Counted from the first letter of the stretch, positions 16,701-57,744 are shown. The stretch is 64,000 nt of DNA from an uncultured Thermoplasmata archaeon (GCA_964516805.1 CAZEXI010000005.1:1556-65555), one strand, 5' to 3'. Numbers and translations are program-made. Notes: a model not told the origin generated them from the sequence alone.

Positions 16701-17199
16701 ATGCGAAGAAAGTATGTCACTCATTAAAAAAGTGGGTATGCTTAGAAAGATCGATAAGGAAAAAGAAAAAAAGGAGATCAATATCCATCATTCCTTAAAT
16801 CAAGCCTTAGATAATCTATATAAGATCGCTGAAGAAAAAAATATCAAAATAGACTATGAGAAATGTTCAAACAAGGTAAGTGCTGGGCCTCTTTTGAAAG
16901 AAGCTTTCAGTAATATAATAGAAAATTGTTTAGAACATTCTGATGGTTCACATATAAAAATCTACTCTAATGACTATGATAGATCTATCGAGCTGATAAT
17001 TGAAGATGATGGTAAAGGCATATCAGACGATAAACTCAATAAAGTATTTAAGAGAGGTTTTAAAGGAAGAAATTCAGGTGGTCTGGGTATAGGGATGTAC
17101 ATCGTAAAAAGTATAATTGATAACTATGATGGTAATATAAACCTAGGAAAATCTGAACTGGGTGGAGCTAGGTTTGAAATAACATTAAATAAAACATAA
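13789..17199 (+). CDS. hybrid sensor histidine kinase: REC-(GAF)x5-HisKA-HATPase
   Basis: 1136 aa with an N-terminal receiver (SDYQMPEMTGL) and five GAF modules. H-box LLRHDLKNK; DDGKGI and GLGIGM boxes. Confidence 0.9.
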   Translation: MDLILIDDNPDLIEQASIYLQREDERFNIHTTTSPINAFNKIKDQDFDVVVSDYQMPEMTGLDLLKKMRDNGYNTPFIIFTGRGREEVAIKALNLGADRYIQKGCDIKTQYSLLANNIKQVVDLEESKQRIKEKKNKIKALHKIGFQLNKTDNEEDILDLTIKAASDILEFNVCDIDFLKDGEFIPKRTTREDGIPVESYPFKGTLAKTYKTKESFITNDITNSDTADPIDKNYKSGISVPIGGYGVFQAISFQKDYFDEEDLELSEILISHVNLALNKVKFDKKRQKEKDKIEKLHKITSKMENVDEMKDVFDLAIEAVENILDFNVCSFSLADDDEFVITAKSSAEYLPIGYRFPINTGIAGKCYKTGSKIVTKDVDRDNRAQPNKDSYKSGITLPILNIGIFQIIFDEKEAFDDHDVRVVELLINHVNEALKRIRSTSSLKESEATYKTIYENTLKLSKEKDFDKVIKTIADNAKKLLKANDSIIYLLNTNKNSIEPIYSNNPDYKEEIMNYDISLGEGLTGNVVKNGEAKIINYDDEKNGILVIPGTEKKKDHEHESVISTPLFIDDKVQGAITVTKFKEKFSEEDIIKLNTFARQAEIAIKRAEELDNLKRSKRKLKENKNKIEELHYAVNRIEKSKNEQEIYHLAIKIAENILDFDIAEFMVKSKDELVVKAKSYSDPTEDDSIGIEEGIAGRTYKHGSSYIIGDIPNYFKSEPTNEDYKSGISVPVGKYGVFQAISTEKDNFDQNDLDLAEILISHVTEKLKNISNEKKIKRESEKIERLHKFAANLESCLEKERVFELITEAGENILDLDICKTYISKDDDLLIKKHSSMYTQSSSSLAKKLADKTYDEDKILTENDIENIESTENFKSIISMPIASYGVFQAISKDKKAFDQEDTKLSKLLIDHAVEALNRIQSESREEFLLTLLRHDLKNKNNITRGYISIIQDMDIDDKQKTFLEKASTSCEESMSLIKKVGMLRKIDKEKEKKEINIHHSLNQALDNLYKIAEEKNIKIDYEKCSNKVSAGPLLKEAFSNIIENCLEHSDGSHIKIYSNDYDRSIELIIEDDGKGISDDKLNKVFKRGFKGRNSGGLGIGMYIVKSIIDNYDGNINLGKSELGGARFEITLNKT
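14194..16554 (+). repeat. tandem array of five GAF-encoding modules (four of one subtype, one divergent) inside the kinase gene
   Basis: A signature recurs at about aa 136, 291, 626 and 782: K-I-x-x-LH ... ENILDF(N/D)(V/I)C ... YKSGIS(V)P(I/V)G.YGVFQAIS ... L(A/S)E(I/L)LI.HV. Module 3 (about aa 448-607) is a different GAF type. Confidence 0.75.
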
Positions 17200-21328: not shown

Positions 21329-23068
21329 CTAAGCCTTTTTTAAATATACGTCAAATCTCGCTCCACCAAATTCCGAATCTTTTACTAATATATCGCCTTC
21401 CAAACTATTTGCTATTTTTCTGGCAATGTACATACCAAGACCAGTACCTGCAAATCTTCCTTTTCTAGAATTTTTCTCGAAAATTATTTTCTTTAATTCA
21501 TCATCTATGCCGATACCATCATCTTCAAAGATAATTATAACTTCATCATCTTCGATTTTAGATCTTATTCTAATCTTAGAACCTTGAGAATGCTTTATGG
21601 AATTTATGATTATGTTCAAAAATAGATCTTCCAATAAACTACCACCCATCACTTTAACATCATCCATATCCCAATCTATATCAATCCCTTCATCATTTGC
21701 TTTTGAATCGATCTCAGATACGATCGAATCAATGATGGGCTTCACTCTGATCTCTTCTTTTTTTATTTCTGGTATCTTCATCATGGTATCAACTTTATTC
21801 ACTAGGTCAACTGATTTTTCAAGGGCTTTACTGGATTTAGATATCAACTTTTTCTGTTGGTCATTCAAATCAGTATCTTTTATCAAGTCCAAATATCCTC
21901 TCATCACCTGAGCTTTATTTTTTATGTCATGGGTTAACATTGAATGCAAAAAATCCTCTCTCTCCTCTGCCTCGACCCTTTCAGTTATATCGCACGCTGT
22001 ACCAAATAACTTTTTTCGATCATCAATAGTCACGATATCCGTTTCAATTTTTATATAACGAACATTGCCATCCTTGTCTTTTACTTTTATACTAAAGGGC
22101 TCTATCTCTTTTTCAGTTCTAAATTTTTCTAACCCTTCTTCTAATAACTCTGAATTTTCAATTGATAATATATCTGATAAATTCTTGAAATCTCTTCCAA
22201 TTAACTCTTTTTTGGGTAAACCCATCGTTTTGCAGAATGTTTTACTGATATCTTCCAATATCCCGTTTTTGTTTACGATGAAGCCAACTTCAGGCACCTT
22301 CTCGAAAAATATCTTAAACCTATCTCTACTCCTTAATTCAGTTAGCTCCTCTACGAAATTGATGACAAATGTCCTTCCTTCGTCTCTCAGTTTTGTAACT
22401 TTTATTTTAACGTCCACATCTGTCATATCACTCCTGCTGTATGTTGAATACAAATAAATATGCTCATCGGTTTCCATCCTGTTCCAATAATACCCTTCTG
22501 TCGATTCTGCATTTAATATCAGGTCTAAATCGGTCATATTCATCAGAAATAGGTCCTCTTCAGAATAGCCTAGTAGATCAAAGATGAAATTATTAGCATA
22601 TAATATATTACCATATTCATCATTTATGATTATGCCTTCTGGTGCGTTCTTTAATAATAAATCTACTTTTCCTTCCAGATCTTTTCTTGCCTTTTTTCGA
22701 TTTATCACTCTTTCGATTGATTTACCGAGCTCTTCATACTGGGATTTTGGATCACCAGTCTTGGTCATATAAAAATCAGCACCCTCATTCAGAGCTTCCA
22801 TTGCTATACTCTCTCCGCCTCTTCCCGTTAAAATCACAAACGGTATGTCTTCTCCCTGATTCCTTAACTTTTCAAGAAAATCTAAACCATCCATATTCGG
22901 CATGAGATAATCAGAAACAACTGCATCATACCTTTTCATCCTGATCTTATCGATGGCATCTCTAGCGGAGTTGGATGTTTCAACTCTCATACCATCTTTT
23001 AGATCCTCTAAAAATAGCTTAGCCTGCTCAAGGACAGGTCTCTCATCATCTACGAATAAGACGTCCAT
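21329..23068 (-). CDS. hybrid sensor histidine kinase: REC-PAS-PAS-HisKA-HATPase
   Basis: 579 aa with a receiver (SDYLMPNMDGL), two PAS blocks, H-box MLTHDIKNK, DDGIGI and GTGLGM. A GGGGAG SD-like element lies upstream of the ATG. Confidence 0.9.
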   Translation of the reverse strand: MDVLFVDDERPVLEQAKLFLEDLKDGMRVETSNSARDAIDKIRMKRYDAVVSDYLMPNMDGLDFLEKLRNQGEDIPFVILTGRGGESIAMEALNEGADFYMTKTGDPKSQYEELGKSIERVINRKKARKDLEGKVDLLLKNAPEGIIINDEYGNILYANNFIFDLLGYSEEDLFLMNMTDLDLILNAESTEGYYWNRMETDEHIYLYSTYSRSDMTDVDVKIKVTKLRDEGRTFVINFVEELTELRSRDRFKIFFEKVPEVGFIVNKNGILEDISKTFCKTMGLPKKELIGRDFKNLSDILSIENSELLEEGLEKFRTEKEIEPFSIKVKDKDGNVRYIKIETDIVTIDDRKKLFGTACDITERVEAEEREDFLHSMLTHDIKNKAQVMRGYLDLIKDTDLNDQQKKLISKSSKALEKSVDLVNKVDTMMKIPEIKKEEIRVKPIIDSIVSEIDSKANDEGIDIDWDMDDVKVMGGSLLEDLFLNIIINSIKHSQGSKIRIRSKIEDDEVIIIFEDDGIGIDDELKKIIFEKNSRKGRFAGTGLGMYIARKIANSLEGDILVKDSEFGGARFDVYLKKA

Positions 23069-36000: not shown

Positions 36001-36497
36001 ATGAAAGAAATATATTGATACATTTACTAGGTATTATCCTATCTATATCAGCTATTTTACATTCCTTTGATAATTATTGGACTGTTATAATTGTCATTCC
36101 CTATATAATAGTCTCTATTTCAGTCAAATTGAACCTAGAAAAAATATCGGTAATCCCATTGACTGCTGGAACTTTGATAATACCGTTCTTTATTAGCCCA
36201 AATTCTATGAACGATTTTATCCCCATAACAATATTTATAATCACCTTTATCACCCCTCTGATGATCTACTGGATCCTTGTTCTGACACCAACGATAAATT
36301 TTAACCAAAAAGGTATTTTTCTTACAGCATCTTATTTTTGTTTATCGATAATCGTATTTTACAGTATGACATCTATTTTCAACATAACTGATTATATATT
36401 GGCGGAAGAAAATTCAGGCCCTCAAGCGCTGGTACTTATAGGTTCAGCTTTAATAGCTATGATACCTTATCATATCTGGCTGACATTCAAGGACTAA
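35997..36497 (+). CDS. hypothetical polytopic membrane protein
   Basis: 166 aa with about 5 TM helices. Its start overlaps the DUF58 stop (ATGA). Confidence 0.45.
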   Translation: MNERNILIHLLGIILSISAILHSFDNYWTVIIVIPYIIVSISVKLNLEKISVIPLTAGTLIIPFFISPNSMNDFIPITIFIITFITPLMIYWILVLTPTINFNQKGIFLTASYFCLSIIVFYSMTSIFNITDYILAEENSGPQALVLIGSALIAMIPYHIWLTFKD

Positions 36498-37465
36498 TCT
36501 TCTTTAAAATCACCTTTTGGTGTTTCCACCCTTTCTTCTATTATCTCTTTCATAACTTCTTTCTTGTTGATATCTTCTAGCTCAGCATCCACAGACAGTA
36601 ATATCCTGTGTGGAATTACCTTCATAGATATATTTTTAACATCATCTGGGATAAGATAATCCCTACCCTTTAGAACTGCATAGGCCTTGCTTGCATAAAG
36701 CAACTGTTCAGCTGCTCTTGGACTGGCACCTAGAACCAATTCTTCAACATTTCTAGTCTCTAAAATTATATCTCGTATATATCTTAGAATGGCTTCAGAA
36801 GCATATACATCTTTATGTAAACCGTTTATCGTATATCCAAATCCATCACTTATGGTCCTTACCTTTCCATAATCCACATCTTTTTGCTTCATCTTGAGCA
36901 TATCTAGCTCTTTTTCAGGTGATAGATAACCCATATCACTCTTTATCATGAACCTGTCAAGCTGAGCTTCTGGTAGAGGATAAACTCCTTCTGTTTCTAT
37001 GGGATTTCTAGTAGCGATCACCAGGAATGGATCGGGCAGTGTTAATGTTCTTCCTTCTATAGTTACCTGCTTCTCCTGCATCGCTTCAATGAGAGCTGAT
37101 TGAGTCTTTGGAGGAGCCCTGTTTATCTCATCAGCCATCAGAATCTGTGCAAATACAGGTCCTTTCCTTAATTCAAATTCGCTGTTCTTTTGATTATAAT
37201 AAAAATGTCCAGATATGTCTGCAGGAAGCATGTCCTGAGTAAATTGTATACGTTCGTAATCCAGTCCCATAACTTTAGTAAATACTTTGATCATAGTGGT
37301 TTTAGCGATACCTGGGACACCTTCAAGCAATATATGCCCCCCTGTCATCAAGCAGATCAAGAAATCATCAACTACATCATCATAACCAACTATTACTTTA
37401 CCTACTTCCTTTTTTACAGCCTCAAATTTTTTTCTATAATCTTTGAATTCGTTCAAATTTATCAA
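36494..37465 (-). CDS. moxR: MoxR-family AAA+ ATPase
   Basis: 323 aa. Walker A LLEGVPGIAKTT, Walker B ILMADEINRAPPKTQSALIEAMQE and the ATRNP motif. Confidence 0.9.
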   Translation of the reverse strand: MINLNEFKDYRKKFEAVKKEVGKVIVGYDDVVDDFLICLMTGGHILLEGVPGIAKTTMIKVFTKVMGLDYERIQFTQDMLPADISGHFYYNQKNSEFELRKGPVFAQILMADEINRAPPKTQSALIEAMQEKQVTIEGRTLTLPDPFLVIATRNPIETEGVYPLPEAQLDRFMIKSDMGYLSPEKELDMLKMKQKDVDYGKVRTISDGFGYTINGLHKDVYASEAILRYIRDIILETRNVEELVLGASPRAAEQLLYASKAYAVLKGRDYLIPDDVKNISMKVIPHRILLSVDAELEDINKKEVMKEIIEERVETPKGDFKED

Positions 37466-38568
37466 GCTCCTTCATCCTGTGGTTCTTTAAATTTATCATA
37501 AATCATCTTAAGTTTATCTCTATCCCATTGTGGATGTTCTTCCATCAAACCGTCAATAATATCGTCGTCTTCTTCATTATGTACAAATATCGATAACATA
37601 AACATTACAGCTTTTATTATAATGTTTTTGAAACCTGGTACTACTAGGAACAGAGATACACCCAACCCTATCACTACGATCAAAGATGTGATCAACTTAG
37701 AAGGATACTTACCTCTGTATACCATACCCTGGATAAGATTAACTTCTCTATGGCTTTCATCGAATATCACATTTTCTCTATCCGATGATGCATAATTCAA
37801 AATATTGTTTGTTAAAACTTTATTATCAAGTTCTTCACGCATCGAATTGATGAAGATACTGGGATCTGAAACCAATATCAATTCACCTTGACCATACTCT
37901 TCCATGGTAAGAAGAGGAACATTTCTTCTCTTTTCTCCCGGATCGTGCATTCCATTGTTATTTCTATCAATCCAAGATGCTTCTGAAGTGTTCAGGTAAG
38001 ATGTTGAATTTTTATCTGGAATTATACCAGTCGGTTTATTTAGAAGAACATGCGATACATTTTTAGTAATCTCACTATCACGTATGTTATAAGCTACACC
38101 AAAATCAGGTTTTTTCTCAAACGACAGGTCTAAAACTGGTTTTCCTATAAATCTAGAACTAGTATTCAATTTCTTTAACAAAGAATTGCCCTCACCAAAA
38201 TCGTCTGATAAAACAACTATACCTCCTTTACTAATAAAGGAATGTATATAATCAGCTTCGCTTTCAGTAAATCTTTCTTTGGGTCCTAGTATCACTAACG
38301 AAGAACTATTAGCATCTATTGAATACGAGGTTAACTCCTTCTGTGTGACCTCCATAGATTCTCCATTTTCAAGTTTTAAATTTCTGGTAAATTTCCCCAT
38401 CTCGTTAGTTTTTACAGCTAAATCACTACATCCATTCCAACCAGGATTATATACACTGAAATCTGCATCTGTTGTTAGTACAGGAGCAGACAAAGAAAAG
38501 AAGAGTATCAATAAAACTATAGATGCTACGATGATGTATAGTGTAACTTTCTTTAAGAAATCGTTCAC
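37462..38568 (-). CDS. DUF4350-like membrane-anchored protein
   Basis: 368 aa with an N-terminal TM, an extracytoplasmic domain (LVILGPKERFTESEADYIHSFISKGGIVVLSDDFG), a C-terminal TM and a short tail. It overlaps both neighbours by 4 nt. Confidence 0.55.
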   Translation of the reverse strand: MNDFLKKVTLYIIVASIVLLILFFSLSAPVLTTDADFSVYNPGWNGCSDLAVKTNEMGKFTRNLKLENGESMEVTQKELTSYSIDANSSSLVILGPKERFTESEADYIHSFISKGGIVVLSDDFGEGNSLLKKLNTSSRFIGKPVLDLSFEKKPDFGVAYNIRDSEITKNVSHVLLNKPTGIIPDKNSTSYLNTSEASWIDRNNNGMHDPGEKRRNVPLLTMEEYGQGELILVSDPSIFINSMREELDNKVLTNNILNYASSDRENVIFDESHREVNLIQGMVYRGKYPSKLITSLIVVIGLGVSLFLVVPGFKNIIIKAVMFMLSIFVHNEEDDDIIDGLMEEHPQWDRDKLKMIYDKFKEPQDEGA

Positions 38569-40634
38569 AATAACACCTCCTCTTCAACTTTATTCAATGA
38601 ACTATTAAATGATTCTATCTCAGAAGTGGATAAAGATTCCTGAGTGAAATAAGCCTTTTCGAATATATTTGTTATCTTTTTCAATTCTTCATCCAGCCCT
38701 ATCTTTCTAGAAAGGTCTTTCAACAGATCACGATGAGTAGTTCCTTTTTTGACATCCACTATACCGCGTTTTTCGAGTTTATTTATCAGATGTCCATAAA
38801 CATAAGGCACTTCATCCTTGTTTTTAACCTGGGTTAAAACAGGTTCTTCTTTACTATCTATTAAATCCCTCTCTGTGCCCTTCTCTTTTTTCTCGACATC
38901 TTCATTTTTCCTTCTCTTTAGATATAGATAAACCAATAAAGTAAATATGCCTGCTGATAAAACAAATATAAGGACTATCAATTCTTTAAATTTGAACAGT
39001 TCAAATATATTATCTTCATCACTATCCCTTTCATCTATAATAAATGAATCATCACCTATGAACAGTCGTATTGTGTTAGTTTCAGACCGCCTATATTTAT
39101 TGGTCCCTTCAAAAACTGCTTTTATTCTGTGATTACCCTTTTCTAAATCTAAATCATCGATATGCAATGATAAATTATAGGAACCGTTGGCAGTTGTATT
39201 TGCTCCATTAATCTTTTTTTCATCGATAAGGATTTCTACTTCAAAGCCTCCGATCCCCTCTTTTGAACTTCTATTGATTAGATTTCCAGTCAATGGTAAT
39301 GGCCTTTCTAGATCATGTTTTCCCGATATTTTTGCTTTAAGGTTCAATTCAGTCGGGATATCCCTCTTGAAACTAATAAGATCATTTGAATATGAAACAG
39401 TTTCATTGCCTGGATATTCCAGCGTAAGATTATGCATACCCCATCCGAAATCTTCTGAACTTAATTTGAATCTAAAAGATCCATTATTTTCAACATCAAT
39501 TTCACCATTAAAATCTGTTAACAGATCTATACCTGATTTATCTATTGGGGCTTTGCAATTGAATGAACCTTCAATCTCAATAATCTCTCTATGATAGTGG
39601 TTTCTGTCAGATTCAACGTAAATATCAGAAGGCCATTTTCTAATATCTACTGTAATATTGCTTGAGGAAACGTTTCTAGAAGGTGATTCAACTCTAAAAT
39701 TCTTTATACCAAGCTTGCTATCCCAGGGGATTTTCATCTCTGTTTGATAATGTCCTCTTTCATCTGTTTTAAGAGCATCTACCTTTTCCTCATCAATGTA
39801 CAATTCAACAGTTGTATTTTCTATATATTCACCGCCTTTGACCAGGAATCCCTGTAATCCATAGCTCTCGCCAGGATGTAAAATTTCCTGGACATACAAA
39901 GTAATGGATAACGGTAAATCTTTGTACTTATTTAATATATCATCTAAAATTTCTCTATAATCATCTATCAATCCATAACAACTGCTGATCCTTTCTTTCA
40001 AAGTTTCGATATCAAAAACTGAAGTATCAAGAGAACTATAACTTTCCCCTATACTTTGTAAGTATTTATTCATCCTTTCCAGATTATAAGATGCGTCGTT
40101 GAAACTCTCTGTGCCTTTAAAAGAATCTTCTGGAGAAGAGGGTCCCATGCTCTCATTATTGAAATGATCTATCACTACAGAAACATTTTCTATAAAATAA
40201 CTATGACTTTTAATAAAATTCGTGAGATTAACAGACATCAAGTAAAAAGGCTGATAATTTTTTCTAACATACTCGTAACTTGAAACTTCTCCTTTTATCT
40301 TTGACAATAGATCATGAGCATCTAACAAATTTTCTTCTATTTCTTTACTCAGATCAAAAGATTTATTCAATTCATCTTGACTATAGGTGCAATTAAAAGA
40401 ACCCATAGTTCCTTCTTTAGTATTATTTTCTACTGACAAATTGACTTTCAGAGTATTGTCCAAAGAATCGACCATCTGTTCTTTGGTTCTATTCAAAGAA
40501 GCATAAAGAGCTTTTAAATCAGTTCTTGCCTTTTCGAAATATTCATGACTATCTGAAGCTGATGCAAATCCAACAAATGAGGACAGAATCAAAATTAACA
40601 TTAAAGTTCCGGAAAATATTTTCTTAAATTCCAA
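38565..40634 (-). CDS. large secreted/membrane-anchored protein: signal peptide, helical region, Ig-like beta-sandwich repeats, TM, cytoplasmic DUF4129-like tail
   Basis: 689 aa. Signal peptide ends ...FASASD. At least two carboxypeptidase-regulatory-like repeats are present (NTTVELYIDEEKVDALKTDERGHY; FEVEILIDEKKINGANTTANGSY). TM is LIVLIFVLSAGIFTLLVYLYL. The tail ends ...NIFEKAYFTQESLS. Confidence 0.55.
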   Translation of the reverse strand: MEFKKIFSGTLMLILILSSFVGFASASDSHEYFEKARTDLKALYASLNRTKEQMVDSLDNTLKVNLSVENNTKEGTMGSFNCTYSQDELNKSFDLSKEIEENLLDAHDLLSKIKGEVSSYEYVRKNYQPFYLMSVNLTNFIKSHSYFIENVSVVIDHFNNESMGPSSPEDSFKGTESFNDASYNLERMNKYLQSIGESYSSLDTSVFDIETLKERISSCYGLIDDYREILDDILNKYKDLPLSITLYVQEILHPGESYGLQGFLVKGGEYIENTTVELYIDEEKVDALKTDERGHYQTEMKIPWDSKLGIKNFRVESPSRNVSSSNITVDIRKWPSDIYVESDRNHYHREIIEIEGSFNCKAPIDKSGIDLLTDFNGEIDVENNGSFRFKLSSEDFGWGMHNLTLEYPGNETVSYSNDLISFKRDIPTELNLKAKISGKHDLERPLPLTGNLINRSSKEGIGGFEVEILIDEKKINGANTTANGSYNLSLHIDDLDLEKGNHRIKAVFEGTNKYRRSETNTIRLFIGDDSFIIDERDSDEDNIFELFKFKELIVLIFVLSAGIFTLLVYLYLKRRKNEDVEKKEKGTERDLIDSKEEPVLTQVKNKDEVPYVYGHLINKLEKRGIVDVKKGTTHRDLLKDLSRKIGLDEELKKITNIFEKAYFTQESLSTSEIESFNSSLNKVEEEVLL

Positions 40635-42839: not shown

Positions 42840-45026
42840 TTAGAGGTAGGCTCTTTGAGCCTCTCTACCTTTTTCTTTTTCCTCGCGCTCTTCTATCTTC
42901 TTTTGTACTTTCTTCAATGCCTCATTGAAATGTCTTTTGTAAACTTTAGCGTCCTTTATACTTTCCTCTGTGAGCTCTTCACCTTCATCGACGAACTCTC
43001 TTATAGACAACATCACAGCCTCGTTGCAGATAGAAGCTATATCTGCACCACTCATATCATCTGTTTTATTTGCGAGCACATCCAGATTTACATCATCTGC
43101 TAGTGGTTTGTTTCTTGTATGAACTTTGAATATCTCTTTTCTTGCCTCTTTATCTGGTTTTTCTACCATGATATGTCTGTCGAACCTTCCTTGTCTCATA
43201 AGTGCTGGGTCAATAAGGTCTGGTCTGTTAGTAGCTGCTAGTACAACGACGTCATGTAGATCTTCCAACCCATCTAGTTCTGTAAGCAATTGTGATATCA
43301 CTCTTTCAGATACATTTGAATCAGATGATGCTCCTCTTCTAGGTGCCAATGCATCTATCTCGTCAAAGAATATTATCGTTGGTGCTGCTTGTCTTGCTTT
43401 CCTAAATGTTTCTCGTACTGCTTTTTCACTCTCGCCGACCCATTTAGAGAAGAACTCAGGTCCTTTCACCGATATAAAATTAGATTCACTTTCTCTTGCC
43501 ACTGCTTTAGCCATGAGTGTTTTACCTGTTCCTGGTGGACCGCTCATGAGTATCCCTTTTGGTACTTCAGCATCCATGTGTTCAAATACATCCGAGTACT
43601 TGATAGGCCATTCAACTGCTTCACGCAGTTCCTTTTTCGCTTCTTCCAATCCACCTACATTTTCCCATGTAACATCCGGTGTTTCTATAACAACTTCTCT
43701 CATCGCTGAAGGGTTCATCTCTCTTAAAGCTTTGTTGAAATGCTCTTCTCTGACCTCTAATTTCTCCAATATCTCCGGAGGTATCTGTTCAAGATCTAGA
43801 TCGATATCAGGCAATATCTCCCTTAGAGCGAGCATCGCTGCTTCCTTAGCTAGAGCTTCTATATCTGCACCGACGAAACCATGGGTATGAGATGATAATT
43901 CTTCTAGATTCACTTCGTCAGCCAATGGCATCCCTCTGGTATGGATCTCAAGTATCTCTTCTCTACCGTTTTTGTCAGGCATTCCGATCTCTATCTCTCT
44001 ATCGAATCTTCCTGGCCTTCTTAGTGCAGGATCCAGTGCATGGGACCTGTTGGTAGCACCTATGACTATTACCTTGCCTCTAGCCTCCAGACCATCCATC
44101 AGGGATAATAACTGAGCGACTATCCTTCTTTCTGTTTCTCCGGTAACTTCATCTCTTTTCGGTGCGATCGAGTCTATCTCATCTATGAATATTATCGAGG
44201 GTTGGTTCTCTTCTGCCTCCTCGAATATCTCTCTCAAACGTCCTTCACTTTCACCGTAGTACTTGGACATGATCTCTGGTCCGCCTATATTGTAGAAGTT
44301 AGCGTTTGTCTCACTGGCCACAGCTTTCGCCATCAGTGTTTTACCCGTGCCCGGTGGACCGTGAAGTAAAACTCCCTTTGGAGCTTCTATACCGACCTTA
44401 TCGAAAAGTTCTGGATGTCTTAATGGAAGCTCTACCATCTCTCTTACTTTCTCTATCTCTTTATCCAACCCACCGATATCTTCGTAAGAAACGCGTGGAA
44501 CTTTAGCTATCTCTTCTTTGCTGATCGGTTTCTCAGAAATGCTTACTTGTGTGACGTTTGGTTTGATTATCACAGCCTTAGAACCAGGTGAATAAGACTT
44601 GACAACTAGCTCGATCTTATTACCCATTATATTGAGTGTGATCGAATCTCCCTTTGTGATAGGCCGATCTCGTAATGCCTGCTGTCTGAGATACTCCTCC
44701 CCTCCCATCAGACGTATCGGTTGAGTAGGAGCAAAGGTTACCTTCTTAGCTGGTTTCGCATCAACTTTTTCTATACCCACCTTTTCATCTATCTTTACTC
44801 CAGCATTTCTTCTTGTCGGTCCATCTATCCTGATAACTCCGGTATTTCTATCTTTTTCCTCACCAGGCCATACTTTAGCTGCCGTCTGTTTTTCTCCATA
44901 AATCAGAATAATATCTCCGCTATTCAGACCAAGTTTTTCCTTAACTTCTGGATCTATCCTAGCTAAACCTCTCCCTACATCGCTTGATTTTGCCTCCGCA
45001 ACTTTCAATATTTTTTCCTTCGCCAT
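42840..45026 (-). CDS. cdc48: CDC48/VCP/p97 AAA+ ATPase
   Basis: 728 aa with an N-domain (LKVAEA...GRGLARID). Both the D1 and D2 cassettes have GPPGTGKT Walker A and DEID Walker B. The C-terminal ...RAYL is an HbYX-like tail. Confidence 0.95.
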
Positions 45027-45114
45027 AAATATCTACTCCAACAAACTTTACAACTCAAAGTTGTTATCTATTAGTTGTAAAACAATTACTAGAGGTTCTA
45101 TTTAAAAGTTTTCA

Positions 45115-48100
45115 TCATTCTAACAGATCGTCTAACTTTTCTTTCATCTTTTCTACCTTTTCCCTCTTTTCTTCTATCTCTTTCTCCCTATTTGATAGTT
45201 CCTTATCCCATTCTTGAAGTTCTTCCTCTCTTTTCTCAACCCTCTCAACCTTTTCAGACTCTTCTTTGATCTCATCCAATAAACCTGTTAAACGTTTTTC
45301 TTCTTCTTTTATCTCATCCCACTCTTCATCGAGCTTTTCTTTTTCTTCCTCTATAGAATTTTCTTTCTCCCTAAGTGTGGATTCTAGATCTTTTAATTCA
45401 TCTCTTTTCTTTTTAAGTTCCTTTTCTCTCGTAGAGATCTCTTTTTCCAGCTCATCCCTCTTTTCTTTGTACTTTTGTATCTCATCAGATAATTCTTTGT
45501 TCAATTCTTCCTCTTTTTCTTTTTTCTCCTTTGCATAATCTAGAAAATCTAAAGCCTGTTTTTTCAGATCTTTTATTTCTTCTCTTTCTTCTTTTAAACT
45601 CTCTTCCCTATCTTTTAAAGATTCTGATTTATCATCTAATCTACTGGCCTTTTCACTAAGTTTCTCCTCCCATTCAGCTACTTTAGCCTCTCTCATCTCA
45701 ACTCTAGAAATCTTAGCAGGGATCTTTTCCTCCATCTCTTTTAGTTCTTTTCTTTTACTTTTTAATCTATTTTCTAGATTTACCAGCTTTTCTCTTTTAT
45801 CAGCTAAACGTTTTTCTCTCTCTTCGATCTCATTCTTCTTCTTATAAGCTGCCTTACTCCATGATTTTGCTTTTTCCATCTCGTTTATAACTTCCTGGAT
45901 TTCCTTATCTACACGTTCTTCCTTATTTGCTATCTCTTTTTCTCTTTCCTCAATACTTCTAGCTCTCTTATCCAACTCTGATTTCCTCTCATCCAATTCT
46001 TCTTTTAACTCTGATAAATGCTTTTCTTTATCGCTTATTTCATCCTCCCTCTGCTCAATTTCTTTTAATCTACTGCCAATTTTGTTCCAATATTGAAGAA
46101 CTTCCTTCCGTTCACCCTCTATACTATCTTTTTGACTCTCAATATATTCTTTCTCTTGATCGATCCTTTCTTTTTTATTTTCAATTTCTCTTTCCTTATC
46201 ATTTAGAATCTTTTCACGCTCTAATAGTTTGTCTTTCTTCCTTTCTATCTCCTTCTCACGTTCATCTAATTTGCTTCTAAGATTCTCAAGTTCTTTTTCT
46301 TCATTTTCTATTCTTTCTTCTATCTTAGCTATTTTGTCTTTTTTCTCTTCGATGATCTCTTTATTCTTATCAAGCTGACCTCTTTCCTTTTCTAAATCTT
46401 TCTCGCGTTGGGTCAACTGTTCTTCTCTATCCTCCAGCAACTCTTCTCTATTATTAAGCTCAACTTTTTTATCTTCATACGCTGCTTTGATCGCTGCTTT
46501 CTCCTCTTCAAAGTTATTTCTCTCCTCTTGCAGTTTTTTCTCTCTTTCAGAAAGATCATCCTCCCATTTTTGGAGACTGACGTTTAATTCTTGTATCCTT
46601 CCCTTCTCTCTATCCAATTCCTCCCTTTTCTCTCTTATTTCCTTTTCAAACTCTTTTTCACGTTCTACTAATATATCCTCTCTAAAATACAATTCAATAC
46701 TTAATTTATCTAAAAATTCTTGTTTCTGGTTCAACTCTTTTTTACGACCATCTAAAATATTCTCTCTTTCAGCGAGTTTTTTCTCTTTCCTTACAAGACT
46801 GCCCTTTTTACCCGCCAATTTTCTTTGCTTTTTTTGTAAATCTTCTTCAAGTGACCTTAGCTCATTCCTTTTACTTTCGATCTCTTCCTCATCTTCTATT
46901 ATCTGTTCAGACCTATCATCTAGATTCTTCTTCTGTTTCTCAAGTATTTCCTCCCTTTTATCTAACTCCTGTTTCCTATTTTCAAGATCCTTTTCTAAAT
47001 TATCTATCTTCTCTCTTTTTACTTCTAAATCCTCTTCTAAAGAATTTAAATCTGTCTCCATTGACTCTAACCGCTCTTCCTTTTCTTGTAATTCTTCTTC
47101 CCATTTAGATATCTCCTCTTCCCGTTTATCGATCTCGGTACTTCTGTTATCTAGTTTCTCAGATTTCTTCTCTAACTGTTTTTCTTTATCATCCAATTTT
47201 GTTTTCCTATCTTCTAGCTCTTCCCTCGCTTTTTCAATCCTTTCATTTTCATCCTCTAGTTTTTGAGCTTTATTCTCAAGTTCTTCTTCAAGGTCTGCTA
47301 GTTCATCCTCTCTCTCTGCTAACGATCTTTTTTCTTCTTCTATCTGACTTTTCTCTTCAGAAATTTTCTCAAATTCTTTTTCTATCTCCTTTCCCTTATT
47401 CTCTAATTTATTAGACCACTTATCCAATGATTGTTCCCTTTCATCCAAATCATCTTCTAATTCATTCAATCGTTTCTCTTTTTTATCAATTATTTCCTCT
47501 CTTTTCTCCAACTCTTCTTCCTGTTCTTCGAGCTCTTCTTTTCTTTTGTCTAACTCACTTTTTATCTTATCCTGTTTAGATTCTGTTTTATCTAGATTTT
47601 CCTTTCTAACATCGAGCTCTTCTTCTCTGTTTTTCAGTTTTTCTTCTAAATTTGCAAGTTCTCTCTCCTTTTCAACTAAATCATCTTCTTTAGATTCTAA
47701 ATTTGCCTTGAGATCATCCAGTTCCTCTTCCTTCTCATCTAACTCTTCTACCCTCTCTTCGAGCTCCTCCTCTCTTTCTTTTATCTCTTGCTTTCTCTTT
47801 TCAAATTTCTCTCTCTGGTTGGCCAGTTCATCTGACTCTGTTGCTATATGGTCCTCACGAGATTTTATTTCTTTCTCACGCTGACTCAACTTATTCTCTT
47901 TTTGATTCAGATCAGATTCCTGAGAATCTAATTTTTCTTTCTTTGATTCTAAAAAGTCCTGCAATGATTCAAGGTCTTCTTTACGTTCATCTAATTTTTT
48001 CTCACGAGAATCAAGATTACCTTTTTGTTCTTCCAGGTCATCAGCAAGCTTGTTTAAACGATCAGCCTCACTTGATAAGTTTTCTTCTCTATCTGATAAT

Positions 48101-48867
48101 GTCTGTTTTCTTTCTTCAATATCTGCTTCCTTTTCTCTTAATTCTGATTCAAGTTCTTCCAATCCCTTCTTTTTATCTTCTAAATTTGAAGACTCCTTTT
48201 CTATTTTATCTTCCCTTTCTTGGAGATTATCTTCTTTTTCTTGTAACTCTTTTTCCCTCTCCACTATTTTTGATCGCTCTTTTTCTATCTGTTCCTTTTC
48301 TTTCTCTAATCTTGTCTCTAACTCTGATAATTCATCCTCTTTTGATTCAATAGATTCCTGCTTCTCATTCAATTCTCTCTTTAGTTTCTCTAATTTTGCC
48401 TCCTTCTCCCTTGTTCTTTCGCTCCAAAATCTTAAGCTTTCTTCAATCTCTTCTAAAGCCTCTTTCTTTTTAAGAAGCCTATTCTCCTCTTTTAATTCAG
48501 AACTGTCGTCTTTTAAGGCGTCTTTTCCTTCAGAATATTCATCTATAATATCTTCAATGGAATCTTCATCATCTTCTATATCAATCTTCAATTTTTCATC
48601 AGATGCTTTCATCTGAGATATATTAGTCTTCAATTTTGATATCTTTCTCTCAACCCTTTCTTTCTCTTCTCTTACAATCTCTAAATACAAACTTTCATTG
48701 CTTCTAACCTTATTTTCCTCTAAAAAATCATCTATTCTTTCCTGAAGTTTTTCTTTTTCTTCCTTGAGGTCCTTTAATTTTCCCTCAGCCTCCTTTAAAT
48801 TCATCTCATCTTTTTTGGATTCGGTGCTATCCCCTTTATCCTGGATATCTGAACCGGTTTTTTCCAT
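45115..48867 (-). CDS. giant E/K/R-rich coiled-coil / single-alpha-helix-like protein
   Basis: 1250-aa uninterrupted ORF made almost entirely of charged heptad-like repeats (REKEL, KEEEL). No globular domain, TM or signal peptide was seen. Nine Trp residues lie in a recurring [KE]W[EDS]..L context. Confidence 0.75.
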   Translation of the reverse strand: MEKTGSDIQDKGDSTESKKDEMNLKEAEGKLKDLKEEKEKLQERIDDFLEENKVRSNESLYLEIVREEKERVERKISKLKTNISQMKASDEKLKIDIEDDEDSIEDIIDEYSEGKDALKDDSSELKEENRLLKKKEALEEIEESLRFWSERTREKEAKLEKLKRELNEKQESIESKEDELSELETRLEKEKEQIEKERSKIVEREKELQEKEDNLQEREDKIEKESSNLEDKKKGLEELESELREKEADIEERKQTLSDREENLSSEADRLNKLADDLEEQKGNLDSREKKLDERKEDLESLQDFLESKKEKLDSQESDLNQKENKLSQREKEIKSREDHIATESDELANQREKFEKRKQEIKEREEELEERVEELDEKEEELDDLKANLESKEDDLVEKERELANLEEKLKNREEELDVRKENLDKTESKQDKIKSELDKRKEELEEQEEELEKREEIIDKKEKRLNELEDDLDEREQSLDKWSNKLENKGKEIEKEFEKISEEKSQIEEEKRSLAEREDELADLEEELENKAQKLEDENERIEKAREELEDRKTKLDDKEKQLEKKSEKLDNRSTEIDKREEEISKWEEELQEKEERLESMETDLNSLEEDLEVKREKIDNLEKDLENRKQELDKREEILEKQKKNLDDRSEQIIEDEEEIESKRNELRSLEEDLQKKQRKLAGKKGSLVRKEKKLAERENILDGRKKELNQKQEFLDKLSIELYFREDILVEREKEFEKEIREKREELDREKGRIQELNVSLQKWEDDLSEREKKLQEERNNFEEEKAAIKAAYEDKKVELNNREELLEDREEQLTQREKDLEKERGQLDKNKEIIEEKKDKIAKIEERIENEEKELENLRSKLDEREKEIERKKDKLLEREKILNDKEREIENKKERIDQEKEYIESQKDSIEGERKEVLQYWNKIGSRLKEIEQREDEISDKEKHLSELKEELDERKSELDKRARSIEEREKEIANKEERVDKEIQEVINEMEKAKSWSKAAYKKKNEIEEREKRLADKREKLVNLENRLKSKRKELKEMEEKIPAKISRVEMREAKVAEWEEKLSEKASRLDDKSESLKDREESLKEEREEIKDLKKQALDFLDYAKEKKEKEEELNKELSDEIQKYKEKRDELEKEISTREKELKKKRDELKDLESTLREKENSIEEEKEKLDEEWDEIKEEEKRLTGLLDEIKEESEKVERVEKREEELQEWDKELSNREKEIEEKREKVEKMKEKLDDLLE

Positions 48868-49031
48868 GGAGTTTCACGCAACCGTAACTTCTTTTATTAC
48901 ACTTAGGGTCTTTAATATTTTCTATAATTTAATAAACATCGATATCAATAGATGTAATCACTTTAGATAATTTGATGAAGAAACAAAAAATATAATTTAC
49001 TTTATTTTCATATACTTTTAGAGGAATCACT
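48868..49031. promoter_or_regulatory. divergent promoter region of the two coiled-coil genes
   Basis: 164-nt AT-rich spacer with TATA-like boxes on both strands (aaaatataattt; ttatagaaaatatt). GAGG lies 8 nt upstream of the 49032 ATG. Confidence 0.35.
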
Positions 49032-50894
49032 ATGAAGATACCTGCAGGGAAAACTCTCAAATCAAAATTTGGAGGCGAAGGGGAAATAGATACATACATG
49101 GAAGAAGCAAAAAATAATAATTTTATAGGGTTCATATATACTGAGCTAATAAAAAAAGACTCAATATCTAAAGGTTATATTGTTTTTAAGAATAACCAAG
49201 TTAAAGCTGCTTTTCACGAAGGGATAAAAGAGAGTTTTGGTAAAAAATCCATCAGATACATCATCAATGATTCATTGGATGAAGACTGCAGGATAGAACT
49301 CCATTCTTATAATTATGAATCCTCATCTATAACTTTAAAACAGGTTCTTAAAAGTAAAGATGATTGGTTGATAGAAGATGAAGAGGATATTTCTTTAGAA
49401 ATAAAACGTGGAAAAAATTTAGAGGATGAACATACAGTTTTAGATGATCTTGAAGACTCTATCAATAAATTGACTGAAGATGCAAGAACAGGAGAAATTG
49501 ACCTCGAGCTAGAACTGGATGAAATAACTGATATCAAAGAGATGGAAGAACTGATTGAATATCTGAAAGAAAGTGAAGATATCTTCGACGAGGCAGAACA
49601 GGAAATCGAGGAGTTCAAGAAAACTAAAAAGAGAGATGAACTGGAAAAAATAAGTAAAGACCTTGAAAATAAAAAGAGAAACCTGGAGGAGTACGAAGAA
49701 AAACTCAAAAAAAGATCAGATGAGATAAAGAAAAAAGAAGAAAAATTAAATGAAAAAGCTGCTGCTGTTGAAGATAGATTTGAAAGTGTCAAAAATCTAT
49801 GGGCTGAAGTTGAACAAGCTACTAAAAAGATCTCTTCTACCAAGGATGATCTAGAAAAAAGGATCGACGATCTTATTAAAAGAGAAAAACTTGTTTTAGA
49901 AGAAAAGAGTAAAATCGAGCAAAGAAAAGAGGAATTAGAAGACCGTGAGGACAGATTGAATAAATTATCATACAAATTAGAAGATAAAAAATCTGAATTA
50001 GATAAACGTGAGAGCAATATTAAGGAAGAACGTTCTGATGTCGACGATCTAAAAAACCGTTTAGAGGATAAAAAAGAAAGACTATCAGAAAAGGAAAAAG
50101 ATTTGGAACAACTTGAAGATCGTTTAAACAACAGAAGAGAAAATCTAGATAAAAAAAGACATGCCCTGGAAAATAAGGAAATGAAAATAGAGAGTAAAGA
50201 GGACGTTCTAGACGATAAATTAAACAACGTTGAAGAAAAAATATCAGACTTTGAGTCTAAAATCAAGGAGCTAGAAGATATTGAATCTGGAATGAAAGAG
50301 AAAAAAGAAGAACTCTTTAAGATTGAAGAGGAACTATCAGAGAGGGAGGAAAAGCTCGAAAAAATCGAAAAGGAATTGAATGAACGTAAAGAAGAATTGA
50401 AAAAGAAAGAGAAAGAAATCGAAAAAGGAAAAAATGAATTGCAAGAGAGGATAAATGACCTAGATAGACGGGAAAAAGAATTAGATAAAAAACAGGAAAA
50501 ATTAGATTCACGAAGAAAGCAGCTCGAAAATAATGAACAAGAACTTCAAAGGGAAAGACAAAAAATCAAAGACGAGTGGAAAGAAATCGAAGAGGAAAAA
50601 GAATATATTAAACAGCAAAATAAAAAGCTAGCTGGTAAGAAGGGAGCGTTGACAAAAAGAGAAAAGAGATTAGACCAGAATGAAAAAGAACTGAACGAAT
50701 TGAAGAAAGAAATAGATGAGAAAAGTAAAGAAATCAAAGAAAAGGAAGAAAACCTAAAAGAAAAAGAAGAAGAAATAAATAAAAATAAAGATAAATTAAA
50801 AAAGAGAAAAGAAAAGTTGGATGAAAAAGAGTCTGAACTCAAAGAAAAAGAAAAATCTTTAGAAGAATTGAAGAAAGGTCTGGATGAAATCTAA
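49032..50894 (+). CDS. PATAN/DUF4388-like N-terminal domain fused to E/K-rich coiled coil
   Basis: 620 aa. The first ~115 aa are globular (FIGFIYTEL...KGYIVFKNNQVKAAFHEG...GKKSIRYII...RIELHSY). The remainder resembles the 1250-aa neighbour and shares the motif KKLAGKKG(A/S)L.(K/R)(R/K)EK.L. Confidence 0.7.
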   Translation: MKIPAGKTLKSKFGGEGEIDTYMEEAKNNNFIGFIYTELIKKDSISKGYIVFKNNQVKAAFHEGIKESFGKKSIRYIINDSLDEDCRIELHSYNYESSSITLKQVLKSKDDWLIEDEEDISLEIKRGKNLEDEHTVLDDLEDSINKLTEDARTGEIDLELELDEITDIKEMEELIEYLKESEDIFDEAEQEIEEFKKTKKRDELEKISKDLENKKRNLEEYEEKLKKRSDEIKKKEEKLNEKAAAVEDRFESVKNLWAEVEQATKKISSTKDDLEKRIDDLIKREKLVLEEKSKIEQRKEELEDREDRLNKLSYKLEDKKSELDKRESNIKEERSDVDDLKNRLEDKKERLSEKEKDLEQLEDRLNNRRENLDKKRHALENKEMKIESKEDVLDDKLNNVEEKISDFESKIKELEDIESGMKEKKEELFKIEEELSEREEKLEKIEKELNERKEELKKKEKEIEKGKNELQERINDLDRREKELDKKQEKLDSRRKQLENNEQELQRERQKIKDEWKEIEEEKEYIKQQNKKLAGKKGALTKREKRLDQNEKELNELKKEIDEKSKEIKEKEENLKEKEEEINKNKDKLKKRKEKLDEKESELKEKEKSLEELKKGLDEI

Positions 50895-55314: not shown

Positions 55315-55731
55315 TTGGCGATAATTTTGAGTAGAAAGGACTTAGAGGATTCACTAAAAAGGCTTATCAAGAAGCCAGGGATAAGGTACTGCTCAATCGT
55401 CAAAATGAACGGGAACCTTATCGATTTTGAGGGTGAAATACGCAACATGAGCTTAGATACTTACAGTGCAATGTCAGCGACCATTTATGGTGCTGGTAAG
55501 ACTGCAAATGATCATATAAATACAGATGAACCTCACAACATCGTAATAAATGACGGTGGAGGCAGAACCATAATCGAGGGGGTTGGACGTTCACACATAA
55601 TAGTGGTAAGAGCAGAAGATGATGTTGAATTGAATAAACTTCTATCAGAGATAGAAGAGGAGACTGAATTCCTCTCAGAAAATTGGTTAAGAGGACATGT
55701 TATCTCCTCTCTCAAGGACAAGTATGGATGA
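55315..55731 (+). CDS. Roadblock/LC7 (MglB-like) domain protein
   Basis: 138 aa with GIRYCSIVKMNGNLIDFEG...YSAMSATIYGAG...IIVVRAED, typical of Roadblock. The C-terminal tail is EFLSENWLRGHVISSLKDKY. Confidence 0.65.
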   Translation: MAIILSRKDLEDSLKRLIKKPGIRYCSIVKMNGNLIDFEGEIRNMSLDTYSAMSATIYGAGKTANDHINTDEPHNIVINDGGGRTIIEGVGRSHIIVVRAEDDVELNKLLSEIEEETEFLSENWLRGHVISSLKDKYG

Positions 55732-55825: not shown

Positions 55826-56209
55826 TTGCAGGAGGAAGACTTAATGAATAAAGATATACTATTAAAACCGTTAAAGAAAATATGTTCTAACTCGCAAGTT
55901 GAAATTTGTTGTATAGTAAAAACAAACGGAGATGTATCAGCCAGTGTAGGTGATGTAGATACTTTAGAATTAGAGACTTTTGGTATAATGTCAGCAACTA
56001 TCTTTGGCGCAGCTTCTACATCTAACGAACAACTGAAGAAAAAAGAACCTGATCGAATATTTATAGAATCACCGGATGGATATACTTCAGTTATAAATCT
56101 ATCTAAAGATCATCTTTTAGTTATCAGAACTAAATCAAACTTTGATATTAGAAAAATTGATAAAAAATTTAGTAAAAATATAGATGAGATAAAAAATAAT
56201 TTGAAGTGA
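55826..56209 (+). CDS. Roadblock/LC7 (MglB-like) domain protein
   Basis: 127 aa with VEICCIVKTNGDVSASVG...FGIMSATIFGAA...LLVIRTKS. It is a paralogue of the preceding gene. Confidence 0.6.
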   Translation: MQEEDLMNKDILLKPLKKICSNSQVEICCIVKTNGDVSASVGDVDTLELETFGIMSATIFGAASTSNEQLKKKEPDRIFIESPDGYTSVINLSKDHLLVIRTKSNFDIRKIDKKFSKNIDEIKNNLK

Positions 56210-57744
56210 TAATAATGAAATATTTACAGCTTCCTGAAGAATTGAATAATTTCTTCGATGGAGTGATGGGAAGATCCTTGATGATCAAAGGTAATGCGGG
56301 GACTGGTAAAACTATAATGAGTTTAAGTGTAATAGAGAAGATAGGGACTCTCGATAATTCGTTTTATCTTTCTACCAGGGTAACTAATGAAGCTTTGTAC
56401 AGCCAGTTCAATTGGTTAGAAGAGAAAGACTGGAGATCAAGTTTGATGGACGCTAGTATGGATTTTCTTAAATCTATATCAAAAGAAAAAAAGGTCTCAT
56501 ATGAATTCAAAGCACGTAAATCAGAGGAATTGGATAAACTGGATAAAGCCAGGGATGTCCTCAAAGAGATGAGAGGGAAGGAAGAAGTTGACAAACAATT
56601 ACCTGAACATATAAGCAGAACCATGCTCGTTTCTTTGGAGAAAGAGAATAAGATAACAGAGCTTGAAGAACTTTATGATAAAGTTGAAGGACGGCTACCC
56701 GAAAATTCATTCGTGGTAATAGATAGTATAGAGGCCATTGTAGAACGATATGATATCGATGCTAAACAACTGATAAAAACATTACAAAAAGACCTGGTTG
56801 AATGGTCAGGAGTCAAATTGATTCTGATCTCAGAGAAAAAGGAATCTATCGAATGGGATTACCTTGTTGATGGAGTCGTCACCTTAAATGAAGAAGAGTT
56901 CAAAGGAAGGCGATTTAGAAATATGTATTTGAACAAATTAAGGGGTGTTCGAATTGAAAGACCTTCCTACTTATTCAGTTTGGAGAATGGAAAATTCCAA
57001 TACTTCCCTCCTATTACATATCATACCAAGAAACCCATGCTACAACCAAATACAATACAGGAAGAAGACATAGAGGATCTACCCTCATCAGATGATGATT
57101 TTTATTCCTCTGGATCACGTAAATTAGATGAGATACTCAATGGTGGATATCCTAAAAATTCCATCGTATTGATAGAAGTTGATGATACTGTTCCTTTCTA
57201 CGGCCAAATGAATATTTTAGGCCTTGTAGGTAGAAACTTTTTGGTCCACGGAAACGGAGTTTTGAATATTTCTTCTGAAGCAAGACGTCCAGATAAAAGA
57301 GATATTTGCTCATGGTTCCGTGAGATGGTGCCAAATATCGGTGAAAAAGCTTGTCAAAATTTCAAGATCAAAGGTACCACAAGTCTAGAGAACCTCTCAG
57401 AAGCGTATAAAGAGGTTAAATATTTTGCTAATGAACCTATTCTTACAGTAACAAATTGGGAAGGTGTAGAGCATTCGGTCGCAAAACGTGAAGGCGAGAT
57501 TCCTAAAATAGCTAATAGATTGTTAGATCTGATGTCTACACACAGCGATTTAAATATTGGAATCGTTAGACCAGGCCTAGAGATCACACAAAAATTAAGG
57601 AATATTGCAGAAGTACATCTTAAATTGGTGACCAAACACAATACATTACTTATGTATGGTGAAAAACCGAACACTGTGATATACAACGTAAACATAAAAG
57701 AAGGAGAAAGGGGAGCTGAAGTGGTATTTGATCCTTTGGTCTGA
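56206..57744 (+). CDS. two-domain KaiC/RecA-superfamily ATPase (second domain lacks P-loop)
   Basis: 512 aa. Domain 1 has Walker A GNAGTGKT, Walker B SFVVIDSIE and the KaiC-like LNKLRGVRIERPSYLFSLENGKF. Domain 2 has LDEILNGGYPKNSIVLIEVDDTVPFYG where a P-loop is expected. The likely ATG is at 56215, 6 nt after the upstream stop. Confidence 0.75.
   Translation: MIIMKYLQLPEELNNFFDGVMGRSLMIKGNAGTGKTIMSLSVIEKIGTLDNSFYLSTRVTNEALYSQFNWLEEKDWRSSLMDASMDFLKSISKEKKVSYEFKARKSEELDKLDKARDVLKEMRGKEEVDKQLPEHISRTMLVSLEKENKITELEELYDKVEGRLPENSFVVIDSIEAIVERYDIDAKQLIKTLQKDLVEWSGVKLILISEKKESIEWDYLVDGVVTLNEEEFKGRRFRNMYLNKLRGVRIERPSYLFSLENGKFQYFPPITYHTKKPMLQPNTIQEEDIEDLPSSDDDFYSSGSRKLDEILNGGYPKNSIVLIEVDDTVPFYGQMNILGLVGRNFLVHGNGVLNISSEARRPDKRDICSWFREMVPNIGEKACQNFKIKGTTSLENLSEAYKEVKYFANEPILTVTNWEGVEHSVAKREGEIPKIANRLLDLMSTHSDLNIGIVRPGLEITQKLRNIAEVHLKLVTKHNTLLMYGEKPNTVIYNVNIKEGERGAEVVFDPLV

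Follow-up and report, generated by a model that had tools for sequence, protein, structure and literature searches.

Crescentin, FilP, and Scy are bacterial coiled-coil-rich or intermediate-filament-like proteins, which form long rods with stutters and carry no enzymatic domains. RNase Y of B. subtilis has an N-terminal coiled coil of the form L-x-x-[KR]-E-x-x with a sparse hydrophobic core, and it also possesses a membrane anchor, a KH domain, and an HD domain. Little is understood of how archaeal cells are built apart from the known cytoskeletal systems, and long coiled-coil proteins are candidates for a scaffolding role. DUF2226 (PF09987) is described as an 'uncharacterized protein conserved in archaea', and no mention of it was found in the literature searched. 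In the present study, two divergent genes, L and S, were analyzed in a DNA stretch of 64,000 nucleotides (nt) from an uncultured Thermoplasmata archaeon (GCA_964516805.1 CAZEXI010000005.1:1556-65555). This whole stretch is called the window, and all coordinates refer to it unless another contig is named. L is an open reading frame (ORF) of 1250 amino acids (aa) on the minus strand (45115-48867), called from the ORF and its heptad statistics, and S is an ORF of 620 aa on the plus strand (49032-50894) that is composed of a head domain, an acidic linker, and a heptad stalk. The two genes are separated by an AT-rich divergent spacer of 164 nt (48868-49031).

S is a new, long member of a conserved, uncharacterized archaeal head-plus-stalk family, and L is a lineage-specific headless giant with S-type heptad grammar. 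Both are tentatively read as cytoplasmic rod-forming coiled-coil proteins, in which the S head would act as an anchor and L as a headless co-assembling partner or scaffold, and a probability of roughly 40% is given to this reading. An earlier sequence-only reading of the locus had reported two diverging ORFs with a 164-nt spacer, and these coordinates were confirmed. Its view that both products are long, cytoplasmic heptad-repeat proteins, whose stalks contain no transmembrane segment, signal peptide, or enzymatic domain, also stands, and its remark that such proteins are essentially uncharacterized is borne out for the family. Its description of both proteins as almost entirely charged repeats is correct for L and not for S, in which residues 1-115 are a globular alpha/beta domain. 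L consists of 27% E, 17% K, 11% L, 8% D, and 8% R; it contains a single Pro and lacks Cys. S resembles it overall (22% E, 19% K). Charged residues account for about 60% of the total.

The S head (aa 1-115; 49032-49376) was delimited from its homologues, their alignment, and an AlphaFold2 model. Residues 1-130 of S gave nothing in Pfam and nothing in a word-indexed homology search, and the family emerged only with an exhaustive HMMER search. In this search (phmmer against 1.84 billion representatives), 41 homologues of the head were obtained, 12 of them at E <= 1e-10. The homologues are 93 to 1348 aa long, belong mostly to Thermoplasmata-like metagenome-assembled genomes (MAGs), and always carry the head match at the extreme N-terminus. 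Beyond the head, S-like members have a coiled coil and distant members have helical repeats. Four residues of the head alignment are invariant (P4, G6, G14, and G33) and the block D-S-L-x-x-D-C-x-I-E-V-H-S-Y is conserved, and the GKT at aa 6-8 of S is the start of the family's beta-strand rather than a P-loop. With the family alignment as input, AlphaFold2 modeled the head at a predicted local distance difference test (pLDDT) score of 88.7 and a predicted template modeling (pTM) score of 0.83, with the predicted topology beta-alpha-beta-beta-beta-alpha-beta.

S itself has no match to DUF2226 (PF09987) even at E <= 10. Its head is matched by P0005 at E 1.7e-12 and by P0007 at E 3.2e-12 (phmmer; 35% identity), and these two proteins score 25.9 and 26.7 bits on PF09987, respectively, above the gathering cut-off of 22. 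DUF2226 is matched by 9 of the 26 aligned heads. Because direct relatives of the S head pass the DUF2226 threshold, S is a divergent DUF2226-type protein, with a head related to the N-terminal part of the Pfam model. It resembles DUF2226 in the position of the head at the extreme N-terminus and in the M-x-[LIV]-P-x-G-[KR] start, and differs in its stalk, which extends far beyond the 252-position model. The head profile returned only TBP from the PDB sequences, at E 0.09, which was taken as noise, and nothing from NCBIfam. A metagenome scan with the S head alone as query gave nothing, and the scan with a head sub-alignment gave seven loci, all in high-GC relatives and with unrelated neighbors. 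In the family plan, an N-terminal alpha/beta head of about 115 aa is followed by an acidic linker and then by a heptad stalk that evolves fast and varies in length. In S, the linker (aa 120-195; 49389-49616) has an irregular register, low AlphaFold2 confidence, and 30-aa windows with a net charge down to -12.

Two further observations concern this family. A PIN-T2SSE-KH ATPase is encoded 0.1-7 kb from a DUF2226-type stalk gene in L082 (12391-14238) and L095 (1-1202); these are two unrelated MAG contigs only, too few for a conserved neighborhood. In P0030, P0038, and P0041 (L096, L097), a distant S-type head is fused to many W-x3-G-Y-x-V helical repeats and to a bacterial-type DnaA AAA+ domain, together with zinc ribbons or DUF835, which is an unusual architecture.

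The stalks of L and S share the heptad grammar L-x-x-[KR]-E-x-x. Hydrophobic autocorrelation reaches 0.54-0.58 at lag 7 and is about 0 at lags 3 and 4. Register tracing showed that position a is Leu/Ile/Val-type in 93% of the L heptads and 97% of the S heptads, that position d is hydrophobic in 24-27% and Lys/Arg in 49-52%, and that Glu predominates at position e. The phase is unbroken over 615 residues in L (aa 126-740, 88 heptads; 46648-48492, minus strand) and over 425 residues in the S stalk (aa 196-620, 61 heptads; 49617-50891, plus strand). A second unbroken run of L covers 315 residues (aa 794-1108, 45 heptads; 45544-46488, minus strand) and has +4 shifts (stutters) at its edges, and the discontinuities of the regular L stalk are +4 and +3 shifts in general. 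The pattern with a hydrophobic residue at a only was likewise found in ten other family stalks. The recurrent Trp motif that the sequence-only reading had assigned to both proteins holds in L, where seven of nine Trp occupy position d, and fails in S, where both stalk Trp are at position e. With respect to the canonical two-stranded coiled coil, L and S match the periodicity and the hydrophobic a position, whereas their d position, about half Lys/Arg, is atypical. A run of 88 unbroken heptads in which a alone is a hydrophobic core position and d carries Lys/Arg is an extreme test case for coiled-coil rules.

L and S also share a heptad with two glycines, KLAGKKG, which lies at aa 683-689 in L (46801-46821, minus strand) inside the 615-residue run and at aa 532-538 in S (50625-50645, plus strand). 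It is in phase in both proteins, with Leu at a and Gly at c and f, and the S orthologue P0001 of the closest relative, L081 (run SRR11308167), has ILAGRKG. In 20,000 register-preserving double shuffles, a shared 6-mer or 7-mer with at least two Gly was never obtained, and a shared 5-mer was obtained 7 times. The shared glycine-containing interruption noticed earlier, whose positions were within a few nucleotides of the present ones, is thus beyond chance. No retrieved protein other than L, S, and P0001 carries the two-Gly heptad. It lies inside the most basic 30-aa window of each protein (+7 in L and +6 in S), both of which are acidic elsewhere, and it forms the center of the +7 patch, the only strongly basic patch of L, whose net charge is -128. 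KLAGKKG is encoded by different synonymous codons in L and S. The Gly heptad is therefore old and under selection, and recent gene conversion at this site is ruled out. The simplest reading of the sequences is a common origin, under selection, of at least the Gly-heptad segment.

KLAGKKG is also the exact midpoint of the regular region of L, and all register shifts of L fall in the C-terminal half. A hairpin of L with its apex at this motif was rejected, since the mirrored charge profile gave r of about 0 and there was neither charge complementarity nor mirrored stutters. The idea that L consists of two S-like modules was also rejected, as its two halves resemble each other to the same degree as generic stalks.

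According to the reading of S and L as an anchored rod and its headless partner, the S stalk, when fully extended, would be about 70 nm long and L about 180 nm. In an antiparallel or staggered pairing, Leu at position a would pack on the aliphatic part of Lys/Arg at d', and the S head would localize or anchor the rod. L may have arisen from, or co-evolved with, an S-type stalk, and its co-assembly with S could involve the stalk as well as contacts of the basic Gly heptad with acidic stretches. The two genes may plausibly be expressed together from the spacer between them, and the L-S assembly might serve as a scaffold, a spacer, or part of a filament. Crescentin, FilP, and Scy offer an analogy in the long rod with stutters, with S as a head-rod and L as a rod-only protein, and by this analogy a scaffold role is plausible; they differ from L and S in that no sequence homology was found and in that the d position of L and S is mostly Lys/Arg. 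A more ambitious form of this proposal is considered unlikely. It holds that the DUF2226-type head with an a-only stalk may represent a cytoskeletal or tethering system of Thermoplasmata-like archaea, with L, a 1250-residue headless subunit that evolved in this lineage, co-polymerizing with S into scaffolds of about 100-200 nm; the rods would then be antiparallel, with a mixed Leu/Lys-Arg core, and the basic two-Gly heptad would serve as a node for assembly or ligand binding. The locus gives a definable family whose head is modeled confidently and for which neither a structural nor a functional precedent was found, and the natural pair of headed and headless proteins is a test of rod assembly. 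If L and S are instead fast-evolving filler, the value of the locus is limited to annotation correction.

Several results weigh against the anchored-rod proposal. No homologue of L was found at E <= 1e-10 in 5.8 billion proteins, a strict threshold that leaves room for relatives between 1e-10 and 1e-3. L is missing from the syntenic site in L081, and it could be a young, dispensable gene. With the two motifs placed in register, only 1 of 12 sites has a hydrophobic d position in both L and S. A Foldseek fold search of the S head in PDB and BFVD gave nothing significant (E >= 0.04, template modeling score < 0.4), and no conserved gene neighborhood was seen among the S-head family loci examined. 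The AlphaFold2 monomer of full-length S, which contains the head, a low-confidence linker helix (131-180), and two helices (185-365 and 398-619), has a pTM of 0.30. Its low-confidence break at residues 366-397 contains no Gly or Pro and lies where the phase is unbroken, and it was given no weight.

The alternative that survives best, although it is judged rather unlikely, is that L and S are independent, non-interacting rods whose heptad grammar and glycine heptad are convergent or family-wide. A direct BLASTP comparison of L and S gave 32% identity over 296 aa with an E of 5e-10 for the single comparison, and the alignment ends at the motif. Compared with register-preserving shuffles, this similarity had a z of 3.7 when L was shuffled and 1.7 when S was shuffled, so that the global similarity is barely above the heptad background. 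L matches the family stalks P0027 and P0010 at 49-50 bits, nearly equal to its match with S. The a-only grammar is found throughout the family and also fits the Pfam RNase_Y_N model, and the lack of coincidence at hydrophobic d positions points in the same direction. Whole-length paralogy is therefore not demonstrated. The earlier claim that the two are true paralogues and not merely similar in composition was not sustained, as the global similarity reflects the shared heptad consensus, and only the motif and the adjacency of the genes remain. These two points are nevertheless difficult for independent rods. The two-Gly 7-mer is confined to L, S, and the S orthologue among the retrieved family (p < 5e-5), and the genes lie next to each other and diverge from one spacer.

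L may also be a young orphan or a decaying, functionless ORF that arose as a by-product of duplication or expansion of S-type stalk DNA and is kept open only by the scarcity of stop codons in purine-rich E/K coding DNA. This explanation is regarded as unlikely. L081 is 96% identical to the window in CDC48, 80% in the M50 protease, and 78% in MgtC, and its gene order is CDC48, a divergent spacer of 197 nt, P0001 (435 aa; L081 7928-9235), MgtC, and M50, with no L gene. The breakpoints, placed by blastn colinearity and alignment, are L081 7819, which equals window 45116, and L081 7864, which equals window 48968. L and about 100 nt upstream of it (45115-48967) thus constitute an indel of about 3.85 kb between the window and L081, whose edges are the stop codon of L and a point about 64 nt 5' of the S ATG. 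Accordingly, the L-proximal ~100 nt of the spacer are part of the indel, whereas the S-proximal ~64 nt are kept in L081, and a GAGG sits 9-12 nt 5' of the S ATG. S and P0001 are 62% identical in the head and 36% overall, compared with 96% for CDC48; S evolves far faster than its neighbors and is plastic in length. Such fast evolution of S-type stalks favors an orphan origin of L, as do its absence from the syntenic site, the lack of a homologue, and the long ORFs that antisense frames also yield. Searches of L against viral contigs, plasmids, and PDB sequences gave nothing meaningful. The mark of a junk ORF named in the sequence-only reading, absence of homologues even in close relatives, thus applies to L, which is missing at the syntenic site in L081 and had no homologue at E <= 1e-10.

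The coding sequence of L speaks against decay. A stop codon could be created by 870 different single-nucleotide changes, which corresponds under neutrality to about 290 x d stops, and 5% neutral divergence would give about 14; none was seen, and the 3.75-kb ORF is intact. The internal repeats of L are 60-80% identical at the DNA level and have kept the protein register. Recent expansion by tandem or dispersed DNA repeats was rejected, because only these low-complexity matches of 60-80% identity were present. KLAGKKG has been retained with different codons. Codon usage and GC content at third codon positions match the host, which rules out a foreign origin of L and is also unfavorable to an orphan ORF. 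Junk is thus a poor description of L, with its intact 3.75-kb ORF and conserved motif.

A third alternative, that the stalks are stable single alpha-helices of the ER/K type and serve as monomeric spacers or springs, was suggested in the sequence-only reading and is considered quite unlikely. ER/K single alpha-helix (SAH) domains (Waggawagga, PMC5812594), for example the myosin lever extensions, resemble L and S in their richness in E, K, and R, their helicity, and the absence of a globular core. The charged fraction of about 60% and the all-helical AlphaFold2 model agree with such a structure. A simplified SAH-style score, which was our own scoring after PMC5812594 and not the published matrices, had a mean of 0.20-0.23 and reached the twilight cut-off of 0.25 in 12% of the windows of L and 39% of those of S. 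The ER/K helix is disfavored because L and S have a continuous hydrophobic seam, long-range phase, and no net i,i+3/i+4 network. The net opposite-charge pairing at these distances is -0.02 to +0.04 per residue, compared with 0.71 computed for EEEEKKK, and the hydrophobic a position stays in phase over hundreds of residues, up to 88 heptads, with +4 stutters of the coiled-coil type and, in L, Trp placed at d. The single-helix fit proposed earlier was thus not upheld.

Given a phase that continues over long range, +4 stutters, and Trp at d, the L and S stalks are inferred to be supercoiled helical assemblies and probably not single helices. Charged residues occupy 62 of 87, 33 of 45, and 42 of 60 d positions (about 70%), and the g-e' pairs of an in-register parallel homodimer would be slightly repulsive. 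Antiparallel or staggered pairing would be more likely than an in-register parallel homodimer, because the charged d positions would stack like charges in the latter.

It is also very improbable that the L/S pair is functionally tied to the CDC48 unfoldase as a substrate, adaptor, or co-regulated module. CDC48 (42840-45026, minus strand) lies 88 nt downstream of L and on the same strand, and S is next to CDC48 in L081. Uncultured Thermoplasmata MAGs, one of them a Candidatus Natronoplasma MAG, have a CDC48 that is 80-83% identical to that of the window. In three of these relatives (L002-L004), a block of MgtC/DUF4010, M50 protease, and NAD(P)HX epimerase/dehydratase abuts CDC48, and neither L nor S is present there; the same block comes after S in the window. 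Family members elsewhere have unrelated neighbors. Because L081 has S without L and L002-L004 have neither gene, the adjacency to CDC48, which had been left open as possibly meaningful, is not conserved and is an incidental accident of gene order.

The stretch upstream of CDC48 (45027-45114, minus strand) also weighs against such a tie: it is kept with its TATA-like box in L081, which has no L. The 3' end of L is formed by two in-frame stops, TGATGA (45112-45117), and this double stop is only 8 nt ahead of the TATA-like box TTTTAAATA at 45099-45107. The stretch also contains a perfect 8-nt inverted repeat, TTTACAAC (45074-45081) and GTTGTAAA (45047-45054), and a GGAG 13 nt 5' of the CDC48 ATG. 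Since everything between the L double stop and the CDC48 start is conserved in L081, the whole stretch is a candidate operator or hairpin of the 5' untranslated region of CDC48.

Profile searches with L and S gave several partial matches, and no domain match other than the coiled-coil type was found for L. RNase_Y_N (PF12072) was matched at 71.6 bits by L and 49.6 bits by S, against a Pfam cut-off of 32, whereas the RNase Y equivalog TIGR03319 gave 38 (L) and 31.9 (S) bits against a cut-off of 454. L and S have no KH or HD domain match and no hydrophobic N-terminus; they share the RNase_Y_N-type repeats with RNase Y and lack its membrane anchor and its KH and HD domains. The match was therefore interpreted as repeat grammar and not as an orthologous domain. 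NCBIfam models gave partial matches to SMC (score 142.7, cut-off 567), archaea-specific SMC-related proteins (ASRP; 111.8, cut-off 300), and Rad50 (62.8, cut-off 1000). Because all these matches align to repeat regions only, they are grammar-level matches, and in annotation, RNase_Y_N and SMC-like matches on L and S reflect repeat grammar and not function.

A reading of L as the arm of a protein of the SMC/Rad50/ASRP kind with ATPase heads encoded elsewhere, which the sequence-only reading had listed as a possible objection, can be virtually discounted. L shares the very long heptad arms and the partial matches to SMC, ASRP, and Rad50 coiled-coil regions, but the scores are far under the cut-offs and the matches cover arm regions only. 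GK[ST] is missing from L, as are a Cys for a zinc hook, Walker A/B heads, a hinge, and a fold-back signature; no head-only genes flank the pair, and no mirrored discontinuity or charge complementarity exists around the putative apex.

Other features of the window were also recorded. An Rfam scan of the window found no rRNA and no other family, and exact look-ups of S, L, and CDC48 in the assembly index gave no record. A cluster of four hybrid REC-PAS/GAF-HATPase sensor kinases is encoded between 9389 and 23068, two on the plus strand (9389-11683 and 13789-17199) and two on the minus strand (18493-21129 and 21329-23068). An operon on the minus strand (36494-40634) encodes a MoxR-type AAA protein (36494-37465), a DUF4350 protein (37462-38568), and a 689-aa Big_3_5/DUF4129 protein (38565-40634), and it is syntenic in L081 and L001. 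Downstream on the plus strand, two Roadblock/LC7 genes (55315-55731 and 55826-56209) are followed by a gene for a KaiC/GvpD-P-loop ATPase (56206-57744), which overlaps the second Roadblock/LC7 gene by 4 nt; these genes possibly form a small regulatory module.

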